NCBI GenBank assembly: GCA_044892505.1
Contig: CM097883.1
Coordinates: forward strand, 147,994,001 to 148,058,000
Length of the DNA stretch: 64,000 nucleotides
Source: Schmidtea nova
Taxonomy: Eukaryota
Direction: 5' to 3'
Translations under genes and position numbers: made by a program
The notes under the pieces: generated by a model
Databases searched by the model: none
The model's input: the letters and a program-made list of their open reading frames with translations, nothing else
What the model was told of the DNA's origin: nothing
Shown here: piece by piece, positions 1-54,459 of the stretch
Layout of the letters: each line of letters opens with the position of its first letter
Numbering within the stretch: the first letter of the stretch is position 1

Positions 1-731
1 ACATTTTTATGGTGATGGACATAATTTTATATAATTTTGAAAAAATATTTTGTGTTGAAAATATTTTATGTAAATTAATTTTTTAACTATTTGGAAAATG
101 GATTATATTTTCATTTATATTTTAATATTTTAATTCAATAAATAATAATAATAATAAAATAAATAAATAAATAATACAGGTTGTTTAAATAAATTAAAAA
201 TAAATAAATTACTGTTTGTTTAAATAAATTATATTTCTGACCTACAAGGTCAGAAAAATGAAATAATATCTCAAGGTTAAAAAATAATTTTGAAAACAAT
301 TCTGTTTTGAAAACAACTCTATTTTCAAAAACAATTTCAATCAACTCAAGAGGCAAAATAACAATCATTATTGACAGATTAAGTGCCTTAAAATTTAGTA
401 TATAAACTGACTGATTTTTCAGTTAAATCACCCAAAAATCAAAAGCTTTAAAGAAGAGTTGTAAATTCAATAAATTGATATTACAACATAATTTGAGCAT
501 ACCTATTTACACATCCGAGCTCAGGAAGCTGCAAATATTCACACACACACACACGCATCTATACATATATAAAATATAAGTTGGAATTGATACATATATT
601 TTGTGAGGTAATTGTTTAATTTTTATCAAAATTGTAAATTGTTATAATTTAAATAAAGTTTAGAAAAGAACCAGTCTTTGACTTATTTATTTATATAAGT
701 TCATCAAGTTGAGATTCTTGGAACCTCAACA
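1..731 (+). repeat. 5' LTR of element 1 (partial)
   Basis: Identical by eye to 12009-12741 except one AC unit ((AC)7 vs (AC)8). Ends ...CTCAACA immediately before the PBS. Confidence 0.95.
399..424 (+). promoter_or_regulatory. Candidate LTR core promoter (TATA + TCAGTT initiator-like)
   Basis: TATATAAA at 399-406 and TCAGTT at 419-424; spacing is slightly short. AATAAA at 469-474. Confidence 0.3.
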
Positions 732-733
732 TT

Positions 734-751
734 TGGTGCCGCGAACCGGGA
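734..751 (+). promoter_or_regulatory. Primer-binding site, tRNA-His-like
   Basis: TGGTGCCGCGAACCGGGA lies 2 nt after the LTR end and is complementary to a tRNA 3' end ...TCCCGGTTCGCGGCACCA. The ...CGGCA-CCA acceptor resembles metazoan tRNA-His. Confidence 0.8.
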
Positions 752-992: not shown

Positions 993-3900
993 ATGGCGAA
1001 TAATAATGAAAATAATGATAACCTTCGTAATATTTGGCAAAATAGAGATGCTGATAACGTTAATCGTAATATTTTAATAAAGACATTACCAGTTGAACCG
1101 TATAAAGGGGAACCTGAAAAATTTGATGATTTTTTTGATGAAATTGCACAATACGCAGAGGCTTGTGGGTGGACACAAGATGAGTTAAAAAGACGAATTC
1201 CATTATATTTAAAGGGTTATGCATTGCAGGCATATAATAATTTAGAATGTAAGGGTAGAAATTGGGAAGACTTAGTCAACAATTTAAGAGGTGAAATTGT
1301 AATTGAGCGAGATTTGCAGAAAATTAATGTACAAAAATTTAGAAATAGATACCAAGGTAGCAGAGAAACAATTGGAGAATATGTGTATAATTTGACCGAG
1401 TTAGCTCGAAAAGCTTTTGGAGTAGGAGAACATACTGCGAAATTAATAGAGGATCAATTTTGGAGTGGAATTCAAAAATATTTATACAAGGCATTAATAA
1501 TGGTCGAATATGAAGATTTAAACGAACTGGTTCAGAAAGCTCGAAGAATTGAAGCAATTCAAAGAGATAGATCTAACGCAACAATTGATGCAGTAGAATT
1601 AGAGAGTAAAATAGGGAAATCTGAGGCAACTGATAAAGATGATAATATTCCATGGGAAGAGATGAAGCAGTTATATTTGAATTTTGTTAAAAATAGAAAA
1701 AGGATGGGTCCAAATGCAAGTCGAAATCAATCACCAGAAAATAATAAGAGGTCAAATAGCCCAAGGGGTAGACCGAATAGTCGAAATGACAATTATGTAG
1801 AATTTACCAGAAATGATAAAAATAATTACTTTGAATATAATAAAGATAATGAGAGACGTTTAAACTATAATAGGGATAATTATTTTGATAATAATCGATA
1901 TAATAAAAATAGTCGTTTTAATGATAATCGGAACTATAGGGATAACTTTAATACAAGGAACAATTCTGATCGAAATAGATATGATGATAATAGATATAAT
2001 TTTGGGTCAAATAGAGATAATCTTAGAGGTAGACGACCAAGTCCAAATCAACAAATGTATAATAGAGATAGAAGACCTAGCCCATTTAATAATGATGGAA
2101 GAGACAAAATTAATTTTCGAGGTGAAATAAAATGTTTTAATTGTCAAAAGTATGGTCATATGGCAAAAGCATGTAGAAATATACGAGTTGAATCACCAAA
2201 CAGAGTGCAGTTTAAAAAGGAGCCAGAGGTGAAACAAATAAATGGTATGGAGGTTAAAGAACCCAATAATGAAATCGAGATGCTGAGGGATGAATTACAA
2301 GAATTTAAGACAAAATATGAGAGACTAATTGAAAGGAATAAAATTAATGTATTGATTAATGAGTTTAAAACTTTTACTAATGAAGTTAAGATGGATAATG
2401 ATGAATTAAGAGAACAAAGAGAAAGAGATGAAGAATTACTAGCAGAGATAGATAGACATAATATTTTAAAGCAAGAATTGGACGAATCTTTAAAAAAGTA
2501 CCCTATAGATGATAATGAAGTATTGAGAATATTAAATAAAATTCATGTAGAGGGGATAAATCTTGAGAATCTGAGAAACTTGATACCGCTATTGGCTCGA
2601 AGACAAAAGGAAACAAAGTTGTTTGAATTAGAAATTGAGATAAAAGAGATGTTGAGATGTTATAGTGAATTTGTTCGAAAAAATGAGAAGTTACATGAAC
2701 CCTTGGAAATTACATTAGAAACAAAAGATGGAGATACACCTAAAATCATCATTCATAAACAAGGGGTACATACTTGTACAAAAGTGAAAAAGATAAAACA
2801 AATAGCCAGAGCAAATTGGTACAGCGAAATAGGAATCAATGATGAAATAGTATTATACTTTTACGGAATAAAGATGCAAAGTGAAGATTTTTTAATGGAC
2901 TATGGGATAAATTCAATTGATAACAATATAATAACAGTATCAGTTAAAGTGGGATTAGAATCAATGCTAGATGAATGGATTGCTAATGATAGAAGAATAT
3001 CTAAATCAGATGCGAGTCAGAAAAACGATGTAACATATGAAGCAGAGGATTTTGAAACGATAAAACAAGATGGAGATGAGTCACAAGAGTCAGAAATAAC
3101 AAATAAGTTTACTAGTAAACGGATGGCGGAAAAATTGAGAGAGATTGCAAGCGAAATGTCAACAAATAGTGAAGATACAGATATAATTATAGATTTGATT
3201 AAAACTGTATACCCAAGATTATATTCCAACGCAAACATATCATCTTTAGCAGATAACATAGGGAATCGAATTAAACTAATTACAACAGATATAAAAAACT
3301 TAGTGACTGAAGATGTTAATGAAAAAGCTGTCTTGAAAATATTATTCAGAACAGGAATAAATCAGGATAGAGTAGTAACAGCATTGGCATACCTCATTTA
3401 TAGATCAGAATATGTATTGATAAAAAATGCGGAGAAACAAGTAAATCGAGTAGCAGAACAAATATTAATGAAATTAAAACCCGAAGTGATACCATGGATA
3501 CAGTCTAAAGGTGGGTGGCAAATTTTATACGATAAAACAGTGCCGATAGAGACACCTACCATAGAAATAGATACCCAAGAAAAAGAAGTTGAAAGACGAC
3601 TAAAGAAAATAATAAATAAAACAATGATGAAATCAGGAAAAAGTAATCATGGATTATCAATACCTATTATAATAATGATGATAACAATATTACTTAACTT
3701 AATAAAGGGTAGTACAGGTATGATCGCTTATGATTGTCAGAATCCAAAATGGGGACAAAAATATTCACTATTAGATGTAGAAAATTGCCCAGAAGCTAAT
3801 CCAACCACTTTAAGTACCACAGAACCTAAAATATTTTATGTTTATCAAGAATCTGATTTTATACATACAGAAGCAAAAGAATGTGTAATAAAATATTCTG

Positions 3901-6900
3901 AAGAAGTCTTTGTATGTAATAATATAGCAAGGACGATACTCCGACCGTCATTTACACCAGACACAGTTATAATAACACCACAAGAGTGTGAAAATGCATT
4001 TCAATCAAAGAAGATAAAAATACATGAAATCGAACTAAAAGCACAGGTAGGTGCACGAGTAAAACAACGAGTAGATGTAATTGGATGGTCTTCACAGGGA
4101 GGATATTGTCAAGGTGGGGAATATAGAATATGGGGACACATTATAAAAAACGCCGTTGTAAGACGAGAATACATCGTCGAACTTAGACAGTTTAAAGCAT
4201 CATTTGACAGCATAACACAAAAAATGATGACACACCCTTTCTGTACATCAAAAGAAGTAAGTTGTGACACTGGTGAATCAATAGTAATATATAAAGTTGA
4301 TCCATACGATTGTCCTCTAACAATATTGAAGTCGCTAAAATTTACAGCAATTAAAGGCAAACAGTTTACAAATACAGAATCAACTAAAGTAAGAGATAGA
4401 AAACGAAAGACAATTGTAATCCAAGAAAAAGATACACCCACAATATATATGACAGAATCTTCAGGAGAAGCATTGAGATTTCTTAGTAAAGGGGAAATTA
4501 TAAAATGTGGAAAGTCAATAATACAAACCAATTATAAAGGTCTATATTTGAGTAAAGATGAAATAAAAGATGCGAAAATAAAAGTAAACAAATACGATAT
4601 TAAACTTTCATCATATTTCAATAATAAGATTGACTATTTTTATCACCATCAATTAATGCAATTAGATAGGGTATATCAAGAAACAATAATAAATGATTGT
4701 AAGCTTAACCGAGAAATTTTAAGATCGAAAATGGCATTAGCAATTACAAATCCGGATCTAATGGCCCCAATGCTCTTTTCAGAAAGAGGCGCATTTGCTA
4801 GAGTTGTTGGCGAAGTAATCCAAACATTTCAATGTAAACCAGTCAGTGTATCATTAGCTACGAACAAACAATGTACAAACGAATTACCAGTTATTTATAA
4901 GGGAGAGAAAGTCTACTTACAACCCATAACAAGGATACTAACAGATAAAAACTACATACCTAAGAGAATAGATAAATGTACAAACTTATTAGACCCTCTA
5001 TATAAATTAGATGACGAAACATGGATAACGATGTCAGATAAGAAGGTAGCAATAAGACCACTAAATCTAGAAATGACAGAACTAGATAAGAAACTAGAAT
5101 TCATAGAAGTAAATGATTTTGATAACAATGGACTTTATACAAAGGAAGACATAGAAAGTGCAAGAAAACATTTATTATTTCCGAACGAAAAGGAGAAAGT
5201 ACTAACAATAATAGCAAGCAAAGTTATCGAGAATAGCCACGATGGACAATACAATTTCGACATCTTGTTATCAAAAGAACACTTCAAGAAGGTAGTTTAT
5301 CGAGTTCTATATAGTATATGGGGATACTTTGCAATCCTAGGAAATACCTTCTCAACCACACTCGGCATCTATTATTCTATTGCACTACTAAAAATGATAT
5401 GTTCATCACTAGTATCATTTAGACAGCTGAGACAAGTATTTGGCAATTCATACAAAATGCTAGCTTGTTTATGTCCATTTATTGCAAAATATTTAATAAC
5501 TGCAAAACATGATAAAGATATCAAAAGAATAATAAGAAAGACAACAGAAGAAAGACTAATAGATGACAATACCAATCAAGAAAATAATCATACGGAAGAA
5601 TTCGATCACACGGAACCAACGCAAGGAGGACCATATATTATACACATGGATCAATTAAGAAATCTAGGCAATGAGATCGAAACTAATATACCTCTAAAAG
5701 ATTATAACACCCACACGCTGATAAGAAAACCAAAGAAAGTATACGGATGTTATGGACTAGAAGAAAGAGAAGAAGCAAACGACATGAGGCCAAGAACCCA
5801 AATAACGATAAACAATCAAATACTAAATGCGCTAGTAGATACCGGTGCCGCTGCATCATTGATAGAAGAAGATCTACTAACAGAAAAACAACTTCAAAAT
5901 ATCACATCAACAAATGATGAATTATTGTCACTTTCTTCACACACTATACCTATTAAAGGAAACGTAAAACTTACAGTATACTTTGAAAATCAGACCATAG
6001 ATCATGTGTTCCGAGTAGCAGATATATGTCAAAGGAAATGTATTCTAGGCATAGATATTCTGAAAAAATTAAAGAATCATGTAATTGATTTATCAGATAA
6101 CAAAATAAAAAGAAAGATAAACAAAAGTTATAAAAAGCCGATAGAAGTAAGCGCGATAGAAGAATTTGAACTAGAATATGAAAGTGATAATATTATACCT
6201 ATAAAAGTTAATATTCAAAGTGATGACATATTTATTTTCGAACCCAACACAACGATTACAGAAAATAGAAATATAATGCTAACCGACGAATGTGTAATAC
6301 CCAAAAAGGGTATAATCCCAATTCGAATTGCCAATTTCGAAAACAGAAAAATAAAAATTCATAAAGGTACAAAATTAGGTCAATTATCAAAATATAAATA
6401 TGATATTGGCGAGATAAGTATAGAAAGTAACAACCTTGAAGATACAATTAAACCGAATGACATTAAATTTTACGAAAAGACTACAATAAATAACGATTAT
6501 CTGGACAAGGTTCAACAAAAATTATTGCAGATATTAATTGATAAATATAATGATGTTTTTGCAAAGCACGAATTTGATCTAGGAGACACGGATATCATTA
6601 AACATGTAATTGATACAGGGAACGCTAGACCAATAAAACAACGACCCTATGTAACACCATATAAACTTCGAGAAGAAATAAAGAGACAAATAAATGAACT
6701 AAAAGGGGCAGGAGTAATTAGACAAAGTTTCTCACAGTGGGCTTCACCAATAGTACCAGTTAGAAAGAAAGATGGCGAAATTAGAATGTGTATCGATTAT
6801 AGAAAATTAAACGAAGTAACAACAAAAGACTCATATCCATTTCCAAAGGCACAAGAACAATACGATAAACTAAGAGGCGCTAAATATTTTACGGTCATAG

Positions 6901-6956
6901 ATGCTAATAAAGGATATATGCAAATCCAAATAGAAGAAGGAGATATTGAAAAATAA
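993..6956 (+). CDS. Polyprotein, part 1: Gag (capsid-like, CCHC knuckle) - UBL - Bcl-2-like - signal peptide - class III-type glycoprotein - TM - aspartic protease - dUTPase-like spacer - N-half of RT
   Basis: CFNCQKYGHMAKAC knuckle; LREIASEM, LFRTGINQDRVV and PWIQSKGGW motifs; hydrophobic LSIPIIIMMITILLNLIKGSTG followed by MIAYDC; LVDTGA protease motif; RT motifs WASPIVPVRKKDGEIRMCIDYRKLN. Ends at an in-frame TAA. Confidence 0.93.
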   Translation: MANNNENNDNLRNIWQNRDADNVNRNILIKTLPVEPYKGEPEKFDDFFDEIAQYAEACGWTQDELKRRIPLYLKGYALQAYNNLECKGRNWEDLVNNLRGEIVIERDLQKINVQKFRNRYQGSRETIGEYVYNLTELARKAFGVGEHTAKLIEDQFWSGIQKYLYKALIMVEYEDLNELVQKARRIEAIQRDRSNATIDAVELESKIGKSEATDKDDNIPWEEMKQLYLNFVKNRKRMGPNASRNQSPENNKRSNSPRGRPNSRNDNYVEFTRNDKNNYFEYNKDNERRLNYNRDNYFDNNRYNKNSRFNDNRNYRDNFNTRNNSDRNRYDDNRYNFGSNRDNLRGRRPSPNQQMYNRDRRPSPFNNDGRDKINFRGEIKCFNCQKYGHMAKACRNIRVESPNRVQFKKEPEVKQINGMEVKEPNNEIEMLRDELQEFKTKYERLIERNKINVLINEFKTFTNEVKMDNDELREQRERDEELLAEIDRHNILKQELDESLKKYPIDDNEVLRILNKIHVEGINLENLRNLIPLLARRQKETKLFELEIEIKEMLRCYSEFVRKNEKLHEPLEITLETKDGDTPKIIIHKQGVHTCTKVKKIKQIARANWYSEIGINDEIVLYFYGIKMQSEDFLMDYGINSIDNNIITVSVKVGLESMLDEWIANDRRISKSDASQKNDVTYEAEDFETIKQDGDESQESEITNKFTSKRMAEKLREIASEMSTNSEDTDIIIDLIKTVYPRLYSNANISSLADNIGNRIKLITTDIKNLVTEDVNEKAVLKILFRTGINQDRVVTALAYLIYRSEYVLIKNAEKQVNRVAEQILMKLKPEVIPWIQSKGGWQILYDKTVPIETPTIEIDTQEKEVERRLKKIINKTMMKSGKSNHGLSIPIIIMMITILLNLIKGSTGMIAYDCQNPKWGQKYSLLDVENCPEANPTTLSTTEPKIFYVYQESDFIHTEAKECVIKYSEEVFVCNNIARTILRPSFTPDTVIITPQECENAFQSKKIKIHEIELKAQVGARVKQRVDVIGWSSQGGYCQGGEYRIWGHIIKNAVVRREYIVELRQFKASFDSITQKMMTHPFCTSKEVSCDTGESIVIYKVDPYDCPLTILKSLKFTAIKGKQFTNTESTKVRDRKRKTIVIQEKDTPTIYMTESSGEALRFLSKGEIIKCGKSIIQTNYKGLYLSKDEIKDAKIKVNKYDIKLSSYFNNKIDYFYHHQLMQLDRVYQETIINDCKLNREILRSKMALAITNPDLMAPMLFSERGAFARVVGEVIQTFQCKPVSVSLATNKQCTNELPVIYKGEKVYLQPITRILTDKNYIPKRIDKCTNLLDPLYKLDDETWITMSDKKVAIRPLNLEMTELDKKLEFIEVNDFDNNGLYTKEDIESARKHLLFPNEKEKVLTIIASKVIENSHDGQYNFDILLSKEHFKKVVYRVLYSIWGYFAILGNTFSTTLGIYYSIALLKMICSSLVSFRQLRQVFGNSYKMLACLCPFIAKYLITAKHDKDIKRIIRKTTEERLIDDNTNQENNHTEEFDHTEPTQGGPYIIHMDQLRNLGNEIETNIPLKDYNTHTLIRKPKKVYGCYGLEEREEANDMRPRTQITINNQILNALVDTGAAASLIEEDLLTEKQLQNITSTNDELLSLSSHTIPIKGNVKLTVYFENQTIDHVFRVADICQRKCILGIDILKKLKNHVIDLSDNKIKRKINKSYKKPIEVSAIEEFELEYESDNIIPIKVNIQSDDIFIFEPNTTITENRNIMLTDECVIPKKGIIPIRIANFENRKIKIHKGTKLGQLSKYKYDIGEISIESNNLEDTIKPNDIKFYEKTTINNDYLDKVQQKLLQILIDKYNDVFAKHEFDLGDTDIIKHVIDTGNARPIKQRPYVTPYKLREEIKRQINELKGAGVIRQSFSQWASPIVPVRKKDGEIRMCIDYRKLNEVTTKDSYPFPKAQEQYDKLRGAKYFTVIDANKGYMQIQIEEGDIEK

Positions 6957-9869
6957 GCATTTGTGATAGAAAATGAGCTATACGAATTCTTAAGACTACC
7001 ATTCGGAATGGTAAATGCACCAGCAACATTTCAAAGGCTAATGAATACGATATTGATAGATGTACAACATTGCGCAGTATATATGGATGATGTACTGATA
7101 GCATCAAAAACATTCGAGGAACATCTAGAAGATATAAAAAATGTATTAGAAAGATTTAGAAAATCAAAAATTAAAATTAAACCTACAAAATGTAAATGGG
7201 CAGAACCTTCAGCCTTATATTTAGGACATATTGTCTCAGTAGAAGGCATAATCCCAAACCCAGACAAAATAAAAACAGTACAACAATTTCCAATACCAAA
7301 ATCAGTTAAGGAAGTACAAGGATTTTTAGGTTTAACAGGGTATTATCGAAAATTTATCGAAAATTATGCTAAAATAGCAGCTCCATTAATTGAATTAACA
7401 AAAGGAGTAAAAACAAAGGAAGATGGGAGAAAAACACAGATAGTCCAGAAACTAAATAAAATTAACGAAAAACCACAAAAGTTGTGGACTCAAAGACAAC
7501 AAAATTCCTTTGAGCAACTGAAAGAAAAATTAGTGACCGCACCAATACTTAGATACCCTGATTTTACTAAACAATTTATCATTATGACAGATGCCAGCGG
7601 GAAAGCCGTAGGAGCAGTCTTAGGCCAAGAAGAGGAAAAAGGAAAAGACTACGTCATCGCATATGCAAGCAAAACGTTAAAGAATGCTGAAATCAGATAT
7701 TCGACGATAGAGAAAGAATGTTATGCTATTATGTTTGCGTTAAAACAGTTCAAGCAATATATATACGGATCAGAAGTAATAATAAGAACCGATCACAAAC
7801 CATTAGAAGGGTTATGGAAGCATAAAGATACTTCAAGTAGATTATTAAAATGGGCAATGAAGATTCAAGATATGCAAATTAAAATTATCTATAAACCTGG
7901 CAGAATAAATAAGAATGCAGATGCATTATCTCGTATACCAGAATTAAGTGCTCTAGAAGTATTCGCAATAGTTGCAGAAAACCCTATACATATATATGAA
8001 GAACAAATGAACGATCCTGATTTATCAAAAATAAGAGATGAAATTAAAAAAGGAAAAAACCATAAATATAAAATCAATAAAAATTTACTGATAATAGAAA
8101 GCACGACAGGGAATAAACTCATTATAGTCCCTCAAAAATTAAGACAAATACTTTTATTACAATACCATGATGGAGCACTAGGAGGTCACTTATCAGCCAG
8201 AAAAACAGAAAATAGACTATTACAAAAATATTACTGGGAAAATTTAAAAAATGATGTTAAAGCGTGGTGTAAAGCATGTACTATATGTGCTACTAGAAGA
8301 AATACAGGTACTAAAACAAGAGCTAAAACAAGAGCTAAAACAAGCACTCCTATGAAACTATGTGCCATGGACTTTTTATGCAAATTACCCACTACAATAA
8401 ACGGTAATAAACACATATTGGTTTTTAGTGATTATTTCACAAAGTGGGCAGAAGCTTTTCCAACAAAAGATGAAACAGCGGAAACAGTAGCTAAGCTATT
8501 AACGGAAAAAATTATATTTAAGTTAGGCACACCAAGAAAATTACTCACCGATAAAGGAAGAAATTTTATGAGCGAAACAATTTCTAGAATAGCTAATATT
8601 TTTAATATACAAAAAATAAATACAACAGCATACCACCCTCAAACAGATGGATTAGTAGAAAGATTTAATGGTACATTATTGAATAGACTATCAGTTTTTG
8701 TAAATAAAAATCAAAACGACTGGGATGAATATATAAACCAATGTACTTATATCCACAACATCACACCAAATGAAACAACTGGATATTCACCATACTATTT
8801 GATGTACTTAAGGGAACCAATAATGCCAATTGACACGGTCTTTGAACCAAAAATATCACAATATTTAGACACCCCAGATTATGTTACGCTAATGCAAGAA
8901 AGATTACAAGAAGTATATAAAATAACTAATCTAAAAGTTAAATTTCGTCAAGAACAATACAAGGATGAATACGATAAAACGGCTAAACCTCATAATTTTA
9001 AAATAGGCGACAAAATTAGATTAATGTCACCACAAGTAGGCAAGGGTAAGACAACTAAACTAGCACGACCATTTAAAGGCCCATACGAAGTCATGAAAGT
9101 GATCAATGAAAATTTACATATCCAAAAAAATAAGAACGAGGATCCAACTGTTGTGCACGTCAATAGATGCAAACTTGCAGAAGACGAACTACCAATAATA
9201 AAACCACATAAATACAACTTAAGATCACAACCACAAAGTATATTAATGATATCAATAATCACCCTCATTATATTTAATACAGCTAATGCAAATATAATTA
9301 ATAACAAGGATATAAAAATAATAAGAGAACATGATAAAATCACAATTATTAATCTAAATAGGAACCCAATGATTCAATCATACTTAAAATTTATTAATAA
9401 TTCAAAAGTTATACAAAAGACGAAAAATAACGAAAAGAAATATATCGACAGATACACAAATTTGAAACCCGACACTAATTATTATTTCTGTACAGAAACA
9501 CCAATGTGGCATTTGAAAAAGACCCAATGTGAAATAATAAAAACAAAATCTCAGAAAATATACAAAAGGAAAAAGCAGAGAAGATCCCAAACGGAAAAAC
9601 CTAGAATATTAAATAGAATACCATTAAATAAACCTGCAATAACAATAAATAACTGGGAAGAATTTCAAAATCTGTATCACCCCCAACCAAAACCTTTATA
9701 TAAAACATGGCCAATGTATGTAATAATTTTTAGCATAATATTATTAATAACTATAACAATGTGGATAGGAACGCAAACTTATAGAAAATATAAGTGGAAG
9801 AGGCAGCGTTATCGGAGTTCTCTCATTAGATATATACCTGGAAGGTGCACACTATCTACCCTTTGTTAA
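6957..9869 (+). CDS. Polyprotein, part 2 (same frame): C-half of RT, RNase H, integrase, then signal peptide - FN3-like - TM extension
   Basis: EK*AFV...LPFGMVNAPATFQ and YMDD; RNase H MTDASG / EKEC / TDHKPL; integrase H-H-C-C (GHLS...CTIC), AMDF, TDKG, GLVERFN and FKGPYEV; hydrophobic segments at 9240-9290 and 9714-9770. Confidence 0.93.
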   Translation, partial: AFVIENELYEFLRLPFGMVNAPATFQRLMNTILIDVQHCAVYMDDVLIASKTFEEHLEDIKNVLERFRKSKIKIKPTKCKWAEPSALYLGHIVSVEGIIPNPDKIKTVQQFPIPKSVKEVQGFLGLTGYYRKFIENYAKIAAPLIELTKGVKTKEDGRKTQIVQKLNKINEKPQKLWTQRQQNSFEQLKEKLVTAPILRYPDFTKQFIIMTDASGKAVGAVLGQEEEKGKDYVIAYASKTLKNAEIRYSTIEKECYAIMFALKQFKQYIYGSEVIIRTDHKPLEGLWKHKDTSSRLLKWAMKIQDMQIKIIYKPGRINKNADALSRIPELSALEVFAIVAENPIHIYEEQMNDPDLSKIRDEIKKGKNHKYKINKNLLIIESTTGNKLIIVPQKLRQILLLQYHDGALGGHLSARKTENRLLQKYYWENLKNDVKAWCKACTICATRRNTGTKTRAKTRAKTSTPMKLCAMDFLCKLPTTINGNKHILVFSDYFTKWAEAFPTKDETAETVAKLLTEKIIFKLGTPRKLLTDKGRNFMSETISRIANIFNIQKINTTAYHPQTDGLVERFNGTLLNRLSVFVNKNQNDWDEYINQCTYIHNITPNETTGYSPYYLMYLREPIMPIDTVFEPKISQYLDTPDYVTLMQERLQEVYKITNLKVKFRQEQYKDEYDKTAKPHNFKIGDKIRLMSPQVGKGKTTKLARPFKGPYEVMKVINENLHIQKNKNEDPTVVHVNRCKLAEDELPIIKPHKYNLRSQPQSILMISIITLIIFNTANANIINNKDIKIIREHDKITIINLNRNPMIQSYLKFINNSKVIQKTKNNEKKYIDRYTNLKPDTNYYFCTETPMWHLKKTQCEIIKTKSQKIYKRKKQRRSQTEKPRILNRIPLNKPAITINNWEEFQNLYHPQPKPLYKTWPMYVIIFSIILLITITMWIGTQTYRKYKWKRQRYRSSLIRYIPGRCTLSTLC

Positions 9870-10049: not shown

Positions 10050-11663
10050 ATGAACCAATCAGCCTCAAACAATCAGTCAAGCTCAACAATATCCACATAC
10101 ACATACACATGCACCACATATAAACACCACACAGCATTTTATAAGACCATTCAAAATAGCATTCACACAGATGAGGAAGAAATTACACCAAGGAAATTCC
10201 CGAATCAGGTATGCATACCAAATGTATTAAAAGTAGATATAGAAGAAAGAGAAATGATCATCGTAAAATTCAACTCATCAAGAAGATTTAAATTAAAAGA
10301 AATCATAGGTAGTTTTGAAGAAAGTCAAAATGCAGATAGAGATGCAAGAGAAGGCATCAAAATTCCCCACAGAATAGTAATTCATACTACCAAAACAACA
10401 ATATCACTAAAACACAACGATAAAGTATTAGCGATTGCAAACAATACATCAATAATATTTAAAACCCTTAGAGAACGTAAATTGTCTACAGAATTCAACA
10501 ATATCATTATACAACTACATAATATGCCATGTGTAATTGCAATTGAAATATTATATGTACCCACAATAGAAAATCCCTTTAAAAAATTAGAACCCATTTG
10601 GTCAGACATTAGAATGGATAACATATTCGTAGAAAAGAAAATACCTTTCACGAAGCAAACACTAACACCCGAAGAAAGACAAGGAAAAATAACTTTTGTA
10701 GACATAAAATCGGTACAAGATTTTAATAAAGAGTACAGACCAGTAGATGTCTGTATTAGAAACTACAAAGGAGACACACTATTTCAAAGTAAAATTACCC
10801 CAAGAGAAAAAATACAAAGATTCTTTCCAGAAATCACAATGGCTACCAGAGAAAATAGTATAGGCAATATGGACGAATTCATAGCATTGTTAGAAATCAA
10901 GAAACACCTCTATGGAAAAATAATAGTAGGTTTCGACATTATGAAAAAACTGAAAAGTGTCACAATAGACCTGGATGATATTATGGGAGTAAGAGAACTC
11001 TCGAACACCGAATATATGAAAACATTCGTCAATAATGTCCCGGAAGACAGGATTAAATTATCAAATTTAGCATTTCAGATTATTATGAATACAAATGATC
11101 TGAAGAGAAACAAAAAACTTAATGATATATTATTAAAACCAGAACCTTTTAATGTTGGTGAAACTTGCTTAATAGTTCGCTTACTATATTTACTCACAGA
11201 AACCGAATGGGAAAAAGCTGTTGACAATGGAATGAAAACAATAACAAAGAAAACAATTAAAGAAAATTGTTCCACATCGGACGGAAATAAGAAACCAACA
11301 TTTGAAATCATAACAATAGATGAAGATAACTCTAATTTGGAAGTAGAAGGAATTGAGCCAATGGAAGAAGATGAATTAGGACCAGAACCTCAAATCACAA
11401 TAGAAGAACCCATGCCAGAAATCACTGTCACATATAATAGCAATGTAAAGAAAACAACAGTGATTGTAGATGGGAATGAAATACACATATATTATGTTGA
11501 AAAAGGTTATGAGGACATAACCTTGACGCCCCAGGGAGTAGTGTTAGATACAGGGAAGATAGTCGAAAATTTTGAGATAGATGAAAATTATACAATAGGG
11601 GCAAATAAGTACAGACTAAATGTGTATGTGGATAACAACAATCAGAACCCAGGCCAACAATGA
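10050..11663 (+). CDS. Accessory ORF of element 1 (537 aa) with a REX4/ISG20-like DEDDh exonuclease fold and degenerate catalytic residues
   Basis: Intact long ORF between pol and the 3' LTR. FVDIKSV...VCIRNYKGDTLFQSKITPREKIQRFFPEITMAT...HLYGKIIVGFDIMKKLKSV...VRELS...LSNLAFQII...FNVGETCLIVRLLY follows the REX4-type pattern. Confidence 0.65.
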   Translation: MNQSASNNQSSSTISTYTYTCTTYKHHTAFYKTIQNSIHTDEEEITPRKFPNQVCIPNVLKVDIEEREMIIVKFNSSRRFKLKEIIGSFEESQNADRDAREGIKIPHRIVIHTTKTTISLKHNDKVLAIANNTSIIFKTLRERKLSTEFNNIIIQLHNMPCVIAIEILYVPTIENPFKKLEPIWSDIRMDNIFVEKKIPFTKQTLTPEERQGKITFVDIKSVQDFNKEYRPVDVCIRNYKGDTLFQSKITPREKIQRFFPEITMATRENSIGNMDEFIALLEIKKHLYGKIIVGFDIMKKLKSVTIDLDDIMGVRELSNTEYMKTFVNNVPEDRIKLSNLAFQIIMNTNDLKRNKKLNDILLKPEPFNVGETCLIVRLLYLLTETEWEKAVDNGMKTITKKTIKENCSTSDGNKKPTFEIITIDEDNSNLEVEGIEPMEEDELGPEPQITIEEPMPEITVTYNSNVKKTTVIVDGNEIHIYYVEKGYEDITLTPQGVVLDTGKIVENFEIDENYTIGANKYRLNVYVDNNNQNPGQQ

Positions 11664-12741
11664 TAATAATTTGACTTGATGAACTACATTTGATTGTGAT
11701 AACATTTTCTTTTATTTTATTGGTTTTGATAATTGATGATATGAATAATTGATTTTATTTGTTGATGTATTTTTTTAAAATAGATAGACAATGGAAAATA
11801 TCAAATTCAATGACATTATGATTTTAGTGATTTTATATGATAATATTTTATGTGATGACTATCTGGCAATTTTTATTTTTATGGGATAATTTTATTTTGT
11901 TTCTGTTAATAAAATATTGTTGAAAATTAATTTTTGTAATGACAATTTATCATCATGACAATTTATAATTTGACAATTTATCATTTGTGATATTGCGAAC
12001 ATTTATTGACATTTTTATGGTGATGGACATAATTTTATATAATTTTGAAAAAATATTTTGTGTTGAAAATATTTTATGTAAATTAATTTTTTAACTATTT
12101 GGAAAATGGATTATATTTTCATTTATATTTTAATATTTTAATTCAATAAATAATAATAATAATAAAATAAATAAATAAATAATACAGGTTGTTTAAATAA
12201 ATTAAAAATAAATAAATTACTGTTTGTTTAAATAAATTATATTTCTGACCTACAAGGTCAGAAAAATGAAATAATATCTCAAGGTTAAAAAATAATTTTG
12301 AAAACAATTCTGTTTTGAAAACAACTCTATTTTCAAAAACAATTTCAATCAACTCAAGAGGCAAAATAACAATCATTATTGACAGATTAAGTGCCTTAAA
12401 ATTTAGTATATAAACTGACTGATTTTTCAGTTAAATCACCCAAAAATCAAAAGCTTTAAAGAAGAGTTGTAAATTCAATAAATTGATATTACAACATAAT
12501 TTGAGCATACCTATTTACACATCCGAGCTCAGGAAGCTGCAAATATTCACACACACACACACACGCATCTATACATATATAAAATATAAGTTGGAATTGA
12601 TACATATATTTTGTGAGGTAATTGTTTAATTTTTATCAAAATTGTAAATTGTTATAATTTAAATAAAGTTTAGAAAAGAACCAGTCTTTGACTTATTTAT
12701 TTATATAAGTTCATCAAGTTGAGATTCTTGGAACCTCAACA
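11542..12741 (+). repeat. 3' LTR of element 1 (start inferred)
   Basis: 12009-12741 matches the 5' LTR. The start is inferred from purine run AGGGAGTAG (11533-11541) followed by TGTT, which complements the AACA end; it cannot be confirmed because the 5' LTR start lies outside the window. Confidence 0.75.
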
Positions 12742-15758: not shown

Positions 15759-16722
15759 AAGAAACCCGTTCGATTTCAAGTCTCAATGCCCTTTAATCCG
15801 GCAGATGGTACTTTTATTCCTGTGACTGCCAACCCGAATTTTTGTTTTCTTCCTTTAAGATTATCGATGGGCTAATTCAATATTAAATAATTATTTAATT
15901 TGTTTGTATTTTAACATCTAAACCTCCAAGGAACCCCCTTCATTTGATATTTTCAATTGCTACCTGTTTCCAGATTTTTGCCTAAAATATGTTGATTTCT
16001 AGCTTGCAACTCAATTATTAAATATTTAACTACTTCTTTCAAAATTCTTATGTAACCCTAACATTTTAGTACAATAGACCTGATAAATACTTATTATAAA
16101 ATTAAATAAAAAGAGCAATCGAAAATAAAAGCAACATTCTACACCAGTAATTTTAATAAAATTATAATTAGATTATAAGTGACCCTAGTAACTTTTCAAA
16201 AGTTTATGAATATGGTACTAGTGGAAGTCAACTGAANNNNNNNNNNNNNNNNNNNNNNNNNNNNNNNNNNNNNNNNNNNNNNNNNNNNNNNNNNNNNNNN
16301 NNNNNNNNNNNNNNNNNNNNNNNNNNNNNNNNNNNNNNNNNNNNNNNNNNNNNNNNNNNNNNNNNNNNNNNNNATAGCAAAAAATGAAAGTCTTAATTTC
16401 AACTCTGGCACCAATTCAATCTGTGCAAAGTATATAAATAATGAATTGAGGGTCGAGCAAAAAATATTCACGATTGAACAATATTTAGAGGTGGCCGTCG
16501 AGTGTTTAAGTTTTGTAAGTACCACTATTTCGGGCTTGCAATTTTAAATTACCGCAGTTTTCTTGCGTGTTTAATTCACATTTATTTCACACACAAAAGC
16601 ATGTACAAGTTCAGTTTACTATATAGGCCTAGATCACTGATTCAGAAATAACTCCAACTGCACATGTTAAGAATTATGTCTCTGCCAGACTGCCAACTTT
16701 TCAATGTTCATCCGTATTATGG

Positions 16723-19945: not shown

Positions 19946-22150
19946 CAATAATAAAAAAGCAATAATTTTGTTTGGGATTTATTTTTTCTATTTTCGATTG
20001 ATATCTTGATTCGACATCACATTTGATAAAAAAAAGATTTTTAGTTGATTTGACATTTTGTTGCAATGGTCCACGATTACGTAGGTAATTAATATTGAAA
20101 TATTTTTAATGAAATTATTGTACTTATACCAATTTTTGTACTTAATAGTTGTAAATTTATTAATTAAAATTATTTTTTAATAAAATATTATTTTATCAAT
20201 TGTCTTTTGTTTTTTAAATATATTTTGCTACAAAATCTGCCAATGGATATGTATGATTTAAATTTGATACCATTAAGTAAAGTTGAATTCATCTTTTTAA
20301 ATTAAATTAAACAAAGTTAAATAAAATATTAAAATTTATGTTAAAGAATGGTGCAAATATTATGCAGTTTTCGTTGTCCGTGCAAATATCGAAATTAATT
20401 ATTTACACTTTGTACAAGCAATTTTAATCAAGACTGAATTAACTTTTTTTGTTAGTGTGAATCTCAATTTTTCCAGATATTTTGCATAGTTTTGCAACTT
20501 TTTAAATTTCTCAGTTTTCATTTATTTTCTTATATTTATTATATTGTTGAGTTTATTATTAAGTCGGCACAAATCTCTGACTTCTCGCGCTCCTTTTACA
20601 ATAAAAGTCACCCAACTCAATAACATTTATTAAATTTCAATACACAATTACAATGTCGTAAACAATTATTGATAATCTGCACTACTGAGCGACTGGAGTA
20701 GGTCTTCCAATGGGAGATCCCCCTTTCTGGTACGCAATAATTGATTTGAAGTAAAACTATCTAACCTTGTGAATAACTCGTAAAACTATTTTCGACCACC
20801 TGACAATTTCTCGTATATTCCCTGAGTTTACAGAGTAACTATTGATTGGGCACTAATTGAATTTCATTTCGTCAATCCTGAATCTTTGGGATTTTTCTTA
20901 AATTATTTTATTTACCCCTCTGGTTCTGCTTTTCGCTCGGGTTTCTTGATAATCAATTTGTCTGGAGTAATTACGTTAGTTCTTGTTTACTCGGTTTTCT
21001 TTATCTCTGCGTTTCCCTACATGAATTTTTCTAAGATAATAAAATTTATTTTTTGACAACTCGTGTTTCTCATTAGCTTGGGTTTTCTTTAAGGTAATTA
21101 ATTTTTTTTCATAATATTTCTTTTTGGGGACTCCCTTTTGATTTTATATCATCATATTTGAATTTGTCTCATTATTTGACATCCGCCTATATCAGCCCAC
21201 CGCAAAATCTTTATTTTTATTTTTCAAAATTTTAATTGATTTCTGTACTTTAATTAATTACTTTAAATTTTTCATGTTTTTTTATTTGCATATGGTTTTT
21301 GTGCTCTTTATTTTATCTTAAGATTAATTTCAATTAGGGTTGTCAAGTGGTCAACACAAAAAAAGAGAACATTTTAAAAAAAAAATTTTTAAAATCAAAT
21401 TTTATACATAAAGATATTAAGGAACATAAAATTGCACTTATAATTCAAATTTGTGCTTTAAAAATATAAATTAAATTTAATTTAATCATCTTCATCATCA
21501 TTTTGATCACTTTTTTCAATGTATTTATCTACATTACTAACTTTGTTCAAAAAAATTTCATTTTCTTTTATTTCTTTATAAAATTCCAAACATGAAATAT
21601 TTTTATAATTATAAACTACGCTCAAAATACCTCGGACAGTGGAAATTTTTAGCTTATTTCTTTCTTTAGTCCACTGGCCGCTAATCATGGAAAATATTCT
21701 TTCAACATTAGCATTTTGACCAGGTATTGCGAAAAAAAATTGACATATTTTTAAGAGTTCTGAATAGGCTTGTCAACAGGTCTCTTTTAAAGAGAACATG
21801 TTCTCTTTTTTAGCACATTTTATTTGTCCTCTATCTTTTTCTATAAATATTCAAATTGTTCTCTTTTTTCAATTTCGCTGATTTTTAATTAATTTAAGTT
21901 GAAATTTAAAAAGAAACTCGGTATAAAAATTCAAAAATTTGAAAAAAAGCAGGCTATGCTATTGCTGTCCTGTCAATATTTATTGAATTTAAAATTAAAG
22001 ATGAAATAATTTGTGTGTATTAACGATTTTGATAAGAAATCATTATTATTATAATTTGTTGTGTTAAATAAATAAAATAAGCAAGTGAAAAGTAATTATT
22101 AATATTATATTTTTTTGTGTTAAATAAACAAGTAAGTATGTAATTTATTA

Positions 22151-23057
22151 TTGTTAATTAGAGTCTTATATTTTATATTCTTGGATTTTTCTATTTTAGC
22201 TCCAAATATGAGTAAACGAAAATGTTTATTTACTGAAGAACTGCAAGCTAAATTTGTATGTTTTAAATCAACACCAAATTCAAAATCCGAGGCAATATGC
22301 ACTGTTTGTAATACTACAGTTTCGGTTGCAAACAAAGGCAAATACGATTTGGAACAACATATTGCGTCAAAAAAGCATACAAATACTATTCGTATAGGAG
22401 AGAGTTCCAATTCCATATGCAATTTTTTTACAAAAAAATTTTCATCTCTGGATCACAAAGTATCAGCTGTCGAAGGAGCTTTAGCATTCCACACTTTAAA
22501 GCACCATTATAGTTATAACTCCACCGTTTGTACAAACAAATTACTGTCAAACATGTTTGATGATTCGGAAGTAGCTAAGCGGATTTCATCTGGAAAGACA
22601 AAAACGAGATGTATCGCAAATAATGTCATCGCTCCATATTGCATTGAAAATATAATGCAATCATTGTCCAAAATACCATTTATATCAGTTTCAACAGATG
22701 GAAGTAATCATGGGGCAATTAAAATGTTCCCAGTTCTTATTCAATTTTTTGACAAAAATAATGGAATAATGACAAAAATGATTGATTTATATTCTTTGCC
22801 AAACGAAACAGCAGAGACAATAAGTGATAATTTGAACACTTGTTTAGAAAAATACAATATTGTCGAAAAATGTGTTGCTTTTTCTGCTGACAACTGTAAC
22901 ACTAATTTTGGAGGTTTGAAAAGATCAGAGAAAAACAATGTTTACAGCCTTTTAAAATTGAAATTTGGAAAAGATTTAATAGGTGTTGGTTGTCCTGCTC
23001 ATATTGTTCACAATTCCGCACAGCATGGATTTGATTCGATGACAGTAGATTTAGAAT
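22151..23057 (+). pseudogene. 5'-half copy of the hAT transposase, truncated at the junction with the next copy
   Basis: Near-identical to the N-half of the 23205-25166 ORF (STDGS vs STDES, KFGKD vs KFEKD); ends at MTVDLE, where a TIR begins. Confidence 0.9.
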
Positions 23058-23204
23058 TAGGGTTGTCAAGTGGTCAACACAAAAAAAGAGAACATTTTAA
23101 AAAAAAAATTTTTAAAATCAAATTTTATACATAAAGATATTAAGGAACATAAAATTGCACTTATAATTCAAATTTGTGCTTTAAAAATATAAATTAAATT
23201 TAAT

Positions 23205-25166
23205 TTAATCATCTTCATCATCATTTTGATCACTTTTTTCAATGTATTTATCTACATTACTAACTTTGTTCAAAAAAATTTCATTTTCTTTTATTTCTTT
23301 ATAAAATTCCAAACATGAAATATTTTTATAATTATAAACTACGCTCAAAATACCTCGGACAGTGGAAATTTTTAGCTTATTTCTTTCTTTAGTCCACTGG
23401 CCGCTAATCATGGAAAATATTCTTTCAACATTAGCATTTTGACCAGGTATTGCGAAAAAAAATTGACATATTTTTAAGAGTTCTGAATGAAACTCAACAG
23501 CATTTGTTTTAAAATATTCTGTCCATTTGAGACAGGTAATCAATTTTCTAAAATTTTCTATATTAATGTTTTTTTCTACAAATACCTTTAAATTATAAAA
23601 TTGATCAAAACATTTTACATCATCAACAACGATGTTTTTAGATGCAAGCAATACTATCGTATTCTCAATTTCTTCCCATGTTGGAACTCTATCTAATTTC
23701 ATCCAAGTAACGCTTTCAAAATTGGATAGTTGACTAGTCCATAACTTTAAATATTCATAAGACATCTTATAGCAATTCATGCAATTTAAATTGAATTTAT
23801 CTATTTCATTTTCCAATCCATTTTTTATATTTTCAGACAAAATAGACTTTACTTTGATTGGAAAAAATGATTCCTCATATCTATGATGCAATGTATTTGC
23901 TAATGAATTTGTTGTAGCCATTACTTCTAATACAGAATTTTGTTCAGATTCTATTTCTAATATTTTTTCATGAAAAATATGCATTAATGATTCAGCAAAT
24001 TCTAAATAAGCTTTACTAAAAGCATCTTCAAAAAATAATTTTAAAATACGAGGAGAGTTATCAATTGATAAAAAATAAGCTTTTAAAGCAGGATAAACTT
24101 CCAAGACTCTTTTCACAGCGGGATAAAGTGATAACCAGCGCGTTTTTGAATGTTTTAATAACGCTTTATACTGAATGTCTACAAATTCGCAAAAACTTTT
24201 CAAAGATTCTGTCCTTATTGTATAAATTGAAAAAAAATTATAGAGTTTTAAGATTATAGATTCTAAATCTACTGTCATCGAATCAAATCCATGCTGTGCG
24301 GAATTGTGAACAATATGAGCAGGACAACCAACACCTATTAAATCTTTTTCAAATTTCAATTTTAAAAGGCTGTAAACATTGTTTTTCTCTGATCTTTTCA
24401 AACCTCCAAAATTAGTGTTACAGTTGTCAGCAGAAAAAGCAACACATTTTTCGACAATATTGTATTTTTCTAAACAAGTGTTCAAATTATCACTTATTGT
24501 CTCTGCTGTTTCGTTTGGCAAAGAATATAAATCAATCATTTTTGTCATTATTCCATTATTTTTGTCAAAAAATTGAATAAGAACTGGGAACATTTTAATT
24601 GCCCCATGATTACTTTCATCTGTTGAAACTGATATAAATGGTATTTTGGACAATGATTGCATTATATTTTCAATGCAATATGGAGCGATGACATTATTTG
24701 CGATACATCTCGTTTTTGTCTTTCCAGATGAAATCCGCTTAGCTACTTCCGAATCATCAAACATGTTTGACAGTAATTTGTTTGTACAAACGGTGGAGTT
24801 ATAACTATAATGGTGCTTTAAAGTGTGGAATGCTAAAGCTCCTTCGACAGCTGATACTTTGTGATCCAGAGATGAAAATTTTTTTGTAAAAAAATTGCAT
24901 ATGGAATTGGAACTCTCTCCTATACGAATAGTATTTGTATGCTTTTTTGACGCAATATGTTGTTCCAAATCGTATTTGCCTTTGTTTGCAACCGAAACTG
25001 TAGTATTACAAACAGTGCATATTGCCTCGGATTTTGAATTTGGTGTTGATTTAAAACATACAAATTTAGCTTGCAGTTCTTCAGTAAATAAACATTTTCG
25101 TTTACTCATATTTGGAGCTAAAATAGAAAAATCCAAGAATATAAAATATAAGACTCTAATTAACAA
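23205..25166 (-). CDS. Intact hAT transposase (probable start MSKRK at ~25109)
   Basis: Zn finger CTVC...HIASKKH; catalytic STDES, SADN and NVERIFS; CxxH motif (CPAH); uninterrupted 653-codon ORF between TIRs. Confidence 0.92.
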   Translation of the reverse strand: MLIRVLYFIFLDFSILAPNMSKRKCLFTEELQAKFVCFKSTPNSKSEAICTVCNTTVSVANKGKYDLEQHIASKKHTNTIRIGESSNSICNFFTKKFSSLDHKVSAVEGALAFHTLKHHYSYNSTVCTNKLLSNMFDDSEVAKRISSGKTKTRCIANNVIAPYCIENIMQSLSKIPFISVSTDESNHGAIKMFPVLIQFFDKNNGIMTKMIDLYSLPNETAETISDNLNTCLEKYNIVEKCVAFSADNCNTNFGGLKRSEKNNVYSLLKLKFEKDLIGVGCPAHIVHNSAQHGFDSMTVDLESIILKLYNFFSIYTIRTESLKSFCEFVDIQYKALLKHSKTRWLSLYPAVKRVLEVYPALKAYFLSIDNSPRILKLFFEDAFSKAYLEFAESLMHIFHEKILEIESEQNSVLEVMATTNSLANTLHHRYEESFFPIKVKSILSENIKNGLENEIDKFNLNCMNCYKMSYEYLKLWTSQLSNFESVTWMKLDRVPTWEEIENTIVLLASKNIVVDDVKCFDQFYNLKVFVEKNINIENFRKLITCLKWTEYFKTNAVEFHSELLKICQFFFAIPGQNANVERIFSMISGQWTKERNKLKISTVRGILSVVYNYKNISCLEFYKEIKENEIFLNKVSNVDKYIEKSDQNDDEDD

Positions 25167-25619
25167 TAATAAATTACATACTTACTTGTTTATTTAACAC
25201 AACAAATTATAATAATAATGATTTCTTATCAAAATCGTTAATACACACAAATTATTTCATCTTTAATTTTAAATTCAATAAATATTGACAGGACAGCAAT
25301 AGCATAGCCTGCTTTTTTTCAAATTTTTGAATTTTTATACCGAGTTTCTTTTTAAATTTCAACTTAAATTAATTAAAAATCAGCGAAATTGAAAAAAGAG
25401 AACAATTTGAATATTTATAAAAAAAGATAGAGGACAAATAAAATGTGCTAAAAAAGAGAACATGTTCTCTTTAAAAGTGACCGTTTGACAAGCCTAATTT
25501 CAATGTCAAATTTATAAGCGTCATTATAGCTTGGTCGTCCGCCATGGATACTTATAATTTTTGATATTCTTTTTTATAATACAAATTAGAATGTATTAAT
25601 TTTATTTAATTTAATTTGG

Positions 25620-38614: not shown

Positions 38615-38826
38615 ATGGCTATAGTAAAGAATAGGGGGGTACCAAAAAATAAATAAATATATTTATTATNNNNNNNNNNNNNNNNNNNNNNNNNNNNNNN
38701 NNNNNNNNNNNNNNNNNNNNNNNNNNNNNNNNNNNNNNNNNNNNNNNNNNNNNNNNNNNNNNNNNNNNNNNNNNNNNNNNNNNNNNNNNNNNNNNNNNGT
38801 ACCCCCTTATTCTTTACTAGAGCCGA
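38615..38826. mobile_element. MITE-like inverted repeat spanning an assembly gap (N 38670-38798)
   Basis: GGCTATAGTAAAGAATAGGGGGGTAC versus GTACCCCCTTATTCTTTACTAGAGCC. Confidence 0.55.
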
Positions 38827-48528: not shown

Positions 48529-48598
48529 AAAACTCCGGGGGATAGAACAAAGTTGAGCTAAGAAAGTGTTGAATTTTGAATAGGGGTAATATAATTAA

Positions 48599-50121
48599 TA
48601 TGGCGCAAAATCAAGCAGAAACACAGGCACCCGCAGGGGAATTTTTTCGACATCCAACTATTCCAATTTTACCTTACAATAGGAACCCAAGGGATTTTCC
48701 AGAATTCATGTCGGAATATTTTCAACTTGCTCGAGCTTTAGGCTTACCAGAAGCCGTAATGATATTGAGACTACCACTATATTTAAAAGGGCTAGCACGA
48801 GAGCAGTACAATGATATAATAGCAGCAAATAATCCACGAGCATGGAATGATTTAAGGGTGGCTTTGACAAACCGTATTTTACCCGGCGATGCTACGCGCA
48901 TATTGCGACAACAATTCTATAATAAAAAGCAAAACCCAGAGGAGTACGTAGAGGAATACGCTTACCAAATAATGATGTTAGCAGAGCGTGCATTTGGGGC
49001 TAGAGCAGGATGGAACGATATCACCAGAGCTCTAGTAAAAGATCAATTATGGGCAGGATTCACCCCAGCGATGAGAAATGCGTTAAGTTTGTATGTAGGA
49101 GATGCATACGAGGAGCTTGTACAAAAAGCAATTTTAATTGAAAGTAGTCTTGAAAAATCAACTAGTTTATTAGTAAATAAAAGAAAAACAGACACGGAAT
49201 GTTTCAATTGCCATAAAAGAGGGCATATAGCTAAAGAGTTCAGGAGTAAGAAACCTATTAACAATAACAATTTCAAGCAAGTTACATTGCACAAATTGCG
49301 GTAGAAATAACCACGAGACACGAGATTGCAGATGTTCCGACTTGAGTTGCTAAAAATGTAAACTTAGAGGTCATGTTGCGTCAGAATGTAGAGCGCGCAG
49401 TCCTGCATGAACAAATAAATATAAAATGAACCATAAAGATAGTAATAATAATAGTAAAGGGGAAAACCGAAATACTGGGTTTAATATAATAAAGAGTGAT
49501 GAGATAAATTCCACAGGGAAATTAAAATGTCATAAATGTGGTAAATTTGGACATATACAACGATCTTGTCCGTTAAATAATAGTAATACTGGCTCTAAAA
49601 ATAATGATAACAGACAACAACGATCCGTGTGTTTAGTTAATCAGGAACAAAATTTAACTTATCTACAACAGTTAGAACTCGAATTGCAAGAGGAGAAAAA
49701 TCGATTAGCACGGATAACTCTGCAAAGTGATAATAGCATACATACTGTTTTCCGGGATAACGGCGAGGAACCCGACTCGGATAATAGTGAGGGAGAGGGT
49801 TGTCTACAGACAGCATCCGAACAAGTATTATCTAATGATAGCGAATCCGAACTCAGTATGGGGAAAATACTAGAGGAATTCGATGAGACAACTAGAAAAG
49901 GGTTGAACAAAGGAAAAAATCTTGTACAGAGATGTAAAGAACTGGCGAACTCCAGCCAAGAGTCCCAGAAAAAATTAAAAAGGAAACTAGAGGAAATAGC
50001 ATGCAGCAAGATGCGAGAGAGGGAAATCGATGACGCATTGCAAATTATAGCATTAACCCAAGGAGAGAAATGCTATCACTCACTGCTATCGAGAATTAGG
50101 AGGAAATTAGGAGCCAAATAG
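48599..50121 (+). pseudogene. gag of element 2 (frameshifted)
   Basis: ILRLPLYLKGLAREQYN parallels element 1 KRRIPLYLKGYALQAYN; CCHC knuckles. Confidence 0.85.
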
Positions 50122-53880: not shown

Positions 53881-54459
53881 TTAGACATCACAAAGGGGAA
53901 ATCAAAAAGATGAAAATAAAAGAGTTAATAAAGCATGAGGTAGTACGCGAAATCATAGATAATTACAATCATCGGGACGATGATAATTCCGACGGGGGAG
54001 GTAACATAGGGGTACTTTCTACTCAAAATAATATTCATAACAAAACACACACTAAAATACCGAAACGTAAACGAACGCAAAACAGATACCTACCTCCTTA
54101 TGATTCAGAATTCAATTTGTTACCCAAAATTGAGCAGATTAACGAAAATATAGACAATACATCAGTATCCACATTATTCGAGGATAGACAAGATAGTTAT
54201 AGGGCCATAAACAAAAGTAGATTTCCTACAACATTTACAACAATTAGAAGCCCACCTAAATACGTAGAGTTACCCAACATACCAAATATATCAATGAATC
54301 TAAATCCAACATACCCATTTAATGAACTTGAACAACTAAGAGACAGATTTGACACAGAACCTACTAATAGTGAAGCTGAGAGAAGAGAAGCTCAAAATTT
54401 CAGTGTAAATTTACTGGAACTGACAACTGTGTTAATGATATCTAACAAAGGATCTACCA

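Follow-up and report, generated by a model that had tools for sequence, protein, structure and literature searches.

The 64,000-nucleotide stretch of Schmidtea nova DNA considered here (assembly GCA_044892505.1, contig CM097883.1, positions 147,994,001 to 148,058,000 of the forward strand; hereafter the window) opens inside a compact, high-copy Burro-like long terminal repeat (LTR) retrotransposon of 13.2 kb, whose polyprotein carries a ubiquitin-like domain (UBL) between Gag and a Bcl-2-like domain. The domain is predicted to have the ubiquitin fold, integral and without di-glycine tail, and together with a predicted helical bundle upstream it forms a conserved unit that is larger than the UBL alone (Table 1). 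The UBL is real, was correctly identified in a preliminary description of this DNA, and is of a kind already described for Burro elements; what is added here is the compact family itself, the recognition that bundle and UBL repeat together, and findings that speak against shuttling or budding.

A compact and very young element

Both LTRs, each of 1.2 kb, are free of substitutions relative to one another and differ by two gap columns, so the insertion, which has a 4-bp target-site duplication, must be very recent. Intact polyprotein frames of the compact family run to 2,992-2,993 codons; the window copy is interrupted by a single in-frame stop inside the reverse transcriptase (RT), at 6954-6956. 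Its capsid part gives a weak match (PNMA, E 0.091), stronger in the related subfamilies D and E described below, while the family profile of the Bcl-2-like domain matches Bcl-xL at E 1.3e-8. A hydrophobic segment lies between the GGW motif of the Bcl-2-like domain and Env in 6/6 element types, and in the window it is the strongest hydropathy peak of residues 1-1987; this one segment could double as signal peptide of Env and as a tail by which the Bcl-2-like domain is anchored, an arrangement known from cellular Bcl-2 proteins. Sequence contigs from four runs of one study (type of run unknown) cover the stretch, with a 73-base low-depth skip in Gag in two of them; a look for expression listed no RNA data set that holds it.

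Table 1. Features of the retrotransposon at the start of the window (positions are those of the window)
Feature	Position	Strand	Remarks
5' LTR	1..731	+	its first 467 bases precede the window; full length 1,198 bp; TG...CA ends
Primer-binding-site-like stretch	734..751	+	directly after the LTR, begins TGG; tRNA not identified
Polyprotein frame, part one	993..6956	+	Gag, zinc knuckle, helical and UBL module, Bcl-2-like domain, Env, protease, start of RT
CCHC zinc knuckle (nucleocapsid)	2127..2177	+	PF00098, E 1.9e-4, above cut-off
Predicted four-helix bundle, constant partner of the UBL	2433..2681	+	structure model; precedes the UBL in relatives
Integral ubiquitin-like (predicted beta-grasp) domain, no di-Gly	2703..2948	+	profile and predicted fold; pN/pS 0.24
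Bcl-2-like domain	3117..3536	+	BH2-type GGW retained, BH1 altered
Hydrophobic segment	3648..3719	+	probably serves Env as signal peptide and holds the C-terminus of the preceding product in the membrane
In-frame Env, mononegavirus-type fusion glycoprotein	3720..5606	+	PF24664, E 2.2e-88
Retropepsin protease	5784..6077	+	PF00077, E 6.6e-7
Polyprotein frame, part two	6957..9869	+	remaining RT, RNase H, integrase; PF00078, PF17917, PF17921, PF00665
Accessory ORF2	10050..11663	+	weak ISG20 exonuclease likeness, E 0.02; final 40 codons within the 3' LTR
3' LTR	11542..12741	+	1,200 bp

An integral ubiquitin-like domain

The presence of a UBL between Gag and the Bcl-2 domain, as first proposed, is borne out by the family profile and by the predicted fold. 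Whereas the single window sequence reached no significance against known UBLs, the family profile matched ISG15 at E 1.8e-6 and ubiquilin-2 at E 0.0011. The structure model of bundle and UBL (predicted template-modelling score, pTM, 0.81) follows the beta-grasp order of two strands, helix, two strands, short helix and strand, behind four helices at residues 2-22, 28-41, 45-61 and 65-84, and the bundle is predicted to pack on the UBL in a fixed way. Fold prediction had been suggested as a check in the preliminary description along with a Pfam search, and the latter gave a divided answer: the window UBL, at 13.8 bits, falls below the curated cut-off of 23.8 for the Rad60/SUMO-like family PF11976, although weak matches to it occur in 10/12 copies (best E 0.0034) and the relative P0017 matches PF00240 at E 4.8e-5.

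Other searches added little. With the single domain, phmmer against the PDB returned one match, which was unrelated, and word-indexed searches returned nothing at E<=0.001 with residues 540-880 (2,749 candidates) or with the module profile (7,992 candidates), both being weak evidence. In the ESM Atlas, which provides leads only, the top matches were unnamed, ubiquitin/Rad60 clusters scored 0.90-0.91 with <170 shared features, and the module had no match above 0.83. The pairwise match to ubiquitin, of low identity, is at chance level and was rejected as proof of the fold.

The further proposal that the domain is integral and non-conjugatable is supported by a census of 24 modules (10 genomic and 14 metagenome rows), none of which has a di-glycine after the last strand; in residues 1-920 of the polyprotein the sole GG is that of the GGW motif. 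Two plain multi-UBL proteins (P0082, P0040) and a near-duplicate (L103) had been left out before this census, and two copies with stops (L033, L036) were excluded from the module alignment.

The bundle and UBL as a repeated unit

Although the UBL itself was recognized at the outset, the helical bundle that completes the conserved unit was missed, as was the earlier publication of such a domain for Burro elements. The module occurs once in subfamilies A, B and C of the compact element and twice in tandem in subfamilies D and E, and a giant element carries three modules and a further UBL-like stretch (recognized by eye, then aligned; one module aligns poorly). A search of 1.84 billion representative sequences gave 102 matches at E<=0.001, most of them covering the UBL half only; 15/102 passed a filter for spanning both halves, and removal of the two plain multi-UBL proteins left 13, five of which carry Gag, zinc-knuckle or Env Pfam matches. 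No named protein was found in the 10 clusters looked up for these bundle-containing relatives. One of them, P0038, combines the module with Env and has no Bcl-2 match. Behind the module, 7/18 sequences have an AT-hook-type RGRP motif (listed: L053, L103, L107; P0003, P0010, P0019, P0028, P0038); its carriers are subfamily C, five metagenome proteins and the giant element, it is absent from A, B, D and E, and P0038 has a second copy upstream of the module. In the literature searched, neither the helical partner nor a repeated module is described, although the original Burro description, the 2026 Burro1 study or their supplements may contain such an account.

Genome-wide, at most 150 candidates of each search were scored, so that every count is a minimum and less common subfamilies may have escaped notice. 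Among the 150 scored of 580 candidates in the 1.25-Gb genome, 92 show 84-100% identity (subfamily A) and 58 show 72-78% (subfamily B); by hand count, 40/150 have open frames of at least 2,900 codons and 6/150 a stop within the UBL. Subfamily C was revealed by a search with the Bcl-2-like domain, D and E by a search with Env. The genome also contains the giant element (L105-L108), with RING, MATH and ankyrin matches at L106-L108 and TRAF likewise at L106/L108, and a derivative, L104, whose family numbers 2,965 candidates (150 scored). In a 14-row RT tree without outgroup or named Burro, A, B and C cluster with the giant element L108 (support 95/94). In L104 the module is fused directly to the protease, followed by ankyrin repeats, and no Bcl-2, Env, Gag or RT match was found in the five frames scanned. 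At the locus itself (G000:C2:289598500-289608400) a RING gene is retained together with module, protease and ankyrin repeats; this element is very abundant, and its frames are often open over ~1,050 codons.

Selection on the module

We compared a natural copy of A with one of B through the ratio of nonsynonymous to synonymous differences per site (pN/pS). The UBL, 76% identical between the two, gave 0.24 (bootstrap 0.14-0.42), to be set beside 0.07 for Gag, 0.09 for Env, 0.17 for the helical neighbour, 0.50 for the Bcl-2-like domain and 0.56-0.58 for the adjoining linker and low-complexity region. The UBL is thus under purifying selection and less constrained than the replication core. Against subfamily C (41-43% identity) the two ratios rise to 0.64 (0.43-0.95) and 0.57 (0.39-0.84), with synonymous sites near saturation.

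Other elements in the window and the genome

A second, decayed Burro-like element lies at 48573-57415, its RT grouping with subfamilies D/E; it retains traces of two bundle and UBL modules (49903-50361; 50446-50709 with 51381-51515) and, at 51631-51912, a Bcl-2-like domain. At 22136-25181, two opposite-strand frames with the same start (332 and 658 codons) suggest, on inspection by eye, a hAT-type transposase that lies in an inverted duplication. Runs of N at 16237-16373 and 38670-38798 are distant from the UBL.

Elsewhere in the genome, a different high-copy element (L071-L082, L095-L098, L100; for example G000:C1:19683699-19683911) encodes a near-intact ubiquitin, mostly with a Gly-Gly end, in frame between Hsp70-/Hsp90-like fragments and what by eye resembles a Bel/Pao-type Gag; its long frames make up most of the 150 scored PF11976 matches, and its ubiquitin is possibly a cleavage signal for a host protease ahead of Gag. 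Finally, at G000:C1:216191207-216252340, units of ~1.2 kb repeated in tandem give ~25 TFIIS-N (PF08711) matches that are almost identical.

What the module may do

The reading that we favour, at about even odds (roughly 0.5), is that the bundle and UBL offer host proteins, probably those of the nucleus or of the SUMO/ubiquitin pathway, a non-covalent docking site, and that proteolysis frees the module from the part of the polyprotein on the cytosolic side. Whatever is encoded ahead of the signal segment would remain cytosolic, the element's own protease would release the module, and binding would go through conserved charged faces, and not through the hydrophobic patch of ubiquitin. Three such faces come into question. 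The UBL helix begins with a basic face, K/R occupying three positions in 20, 23 and 21 of 24 rows; in the loop after the fourth UBL strand, D/E occupies four positions in 16-21 rows; and in helix 4, the last of the bundle, K/R occupies five positions in 15-20 rows. SUMO, for comparison, binds via a basic groove beside its helix. The likeliest partners would be nuclear or SUMO/ubiquitin-pathway proteins, which the element might recruit or decoy. A docking role is supported by the purifying selection between A and B, by the conserved charge, by the independence of the module from Bcl-2 and Env (L104, and P0038 with Env and no Bcl-2 match) and by a copy number that ranges from one to three. Other Burro cargo likewise targets host ubiquitin and apoptosis systems, according to the excerpts of PMC6431247.

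Several points weigh against this interpretation. Residue equivalences to ubiquitin come from sequence alignment and not from superposed coordinates, and the UBLs of some relatives may keep a ubiquitin-like patch, the position of I44 being aliphatic in 7/14 metagenome rows. The conserved charged patches could lie opposite one another within the module instead of contacting a host protein, or could be surfaces for nucleic acid. Constraint on the UBL is much weaker against subfamily C, where it approaches the linker values. The retention of the module in the L104 family could be hitch-hiking, and the location of the module, its processing and its host partner are inferred.

Among the other explanations, the one that fares best, although we regard it as distinctly less probable than docking, is that of a structural spacer or matrix substitute which links the capsid to the membrane anchor after the Bcl-2-like domain and so aids assembly and budding. 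The hydrophobic segment, found in all six element types, would make a product of Gag, module and Bcl-2-like domain tail-anchored, and the polyprotein frame begins without an N-terminal glycine. A spacer sits less well with a varying number of modules, or with L104, which retains the module without a Gag or Env match in the scanned frames. Neither PTAP nor PPxY occurs in residues 1-920, and the one YPxL, inside the Bcl-2-like domain, is found by eye in 2/6 element types; the suggestion of a budding aid in the preliminary description has accordingly lost ground.

Somewhat less likely still is a proteasome or E3-ligase adaptor acting with the Bcl-2-like domain on apoptosis or on precursor turnover. 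Proteasome-shuttle UBLs such as Rad23 and Dsk2 are defined by the hydrophobic L8/I44/V70 patch, whereas the window UBL aligns K/Y/T with these residues and the I44 position is aliphatic in 0/10 genomic modules, which weakens the adaptor role first advanced, even with the metagenome relatives mentioned above. As to the companion idea of an apoptosis module, module and Bcl-2-like domain adjoin in five subfamilies and in the giant element, but L104 and P0038 have the module without Bcl-2.

From a resemblance first noticed by eye, the bundle could also be a degenerate TFIIS N-terminal domain (TND) of LEDGF type, so that the module, helped in some relatives by an AT-hook close by, would tether the element's integration complex or host elongation factors to chromatin; we consider this unlikely and treat it as a lead. 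When 599 background frames are scored with a profile built from 18 bundles, host TND peptides come out on top (best 13.0 versus 5.6 bits for non-TND), the mean of 8 TNDs being 5.99 bits versus 0.81 for reversed sequences and <=1.44 in 25 column shuffles; the best hhalign comparison gave a probability of 11.5% (pairwise E 0.0026), and the RGRP motif stands behind the module in the seven sequences noted. Yet 13 bits is a low best score and the background itself is weak, the other hhalign comparisons were lower (0.7% with the first alignment, and 7.8%), PF08711 and PF11467 were absent among 25 of 31 families listed for 18 members, and the subfamily of the window has no AT-hook. No TND stood among the 60 of 79 PDB rows listed. 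The structure searches listed none either, but the UBL filled their matches and the bundle was barely probed. A likeness specifically to LEDGF was not supported, with a probability of 0.3% for the host LEDGF-type domain and 7.8% for the reversed control. By extension, elements of the Burro lineage might carry their own LEDGF-like tether, a degenerate TFIIS-N bundle with UBL and an ancestral AT-hook in one to three copies, which would bind integrase or elongation factors and steer integration or transcription without a host cofactor; this is again unlikely. If the bundle were a TND, a retroelement would encode its own version of the host domain that lentiviral integrases exploit.

In pestivirus polyproteins, inserted ubiquitin is a cleavage signal for host deubiquitinases, and entries of this kind appear among the structure-search matches. 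That the present UBL is such a signal, or a decayed captured ubiquitin without function, is very improbable, since the low identity to ubiquitin and the near-linker pN/pS against subfamily C are outweighed by the core and the charges conserved across the 24 modules, by the constraint between A and B (0.24) and by the missing di-Gly, the last two of which largely refute both.

Comparison with known systems

Compared with integral (type II) UBLs, whether of the Rad23/Dsk2/BAG6/Get5 kind or SUMO-like as in Rad60/NFATC2IP, the window UBL lies under the Pfam cut-offs, has no L8/I44/V70 patch and is fused behind a four-helix bundle, and no one subfamily stands out among its structural matches. With the TNDs, including the integrase-binding domain of LEDGF, the bundle shares small size and a weak, forward-only profile likeness; its model has four helices where the excerpt of PMC9987994 gives five for TNDs, and there is no significant Pfam, PDB or LEDGF match.

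The closest likeness is to the giant Ty3/gypsy elements Burro and GYPSM1, whose order Gag-CCHC-UBL-BCL2-env-PR-RT-RH-IN in one frame recurs in the window element. In planarian Burro elements, the excerpts of PMC6431247 report a Ubi2/SUMO-like PF11976 domain flanked by MATH and BCL-2, and an in-frame env that follows BCL2 and precedes the protease; they name one UBL and no helical partner in Burro/GYPSM1, and the authors call for experiments on the role of these features. The excerpt of PMC13465017 cites a 2026 study that showed an anti-apoptotic role of the IAP cargo of Burro1, not of the UBL, and that of PMC8532177 concerns Burro1 expression. Judged from these descriptions and not from a Burro sequence, Burro exceeds 30 kb with a frame of 4,873 (about 4,900-5,100) codons, whereas the window element has 13.2 kb and ~2,990 codons. 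Unlike Burro, it has one zinc knuckle and no BIR, MATH/TRAF or ankyrin Pfam match in its three frames; between protease and RT, at the dUTPase-like site of Burro, our Pfam scan found a PF03539 match and none to PF00692 (HHpred was used in PMC6431247). Because the core order is common, the size less than half and BIR, MATH and ankyrin matches are missing, we class the element as a compact relative of Burro. A very young compact family keeps the module without the BIR, MATH and ankyrin cargo, which singles out three parts as core to the lineage, namely bundle plus UBL, Bcl-2-like domain and in-frame Env, and offers a small, single-module protein for functional assay.
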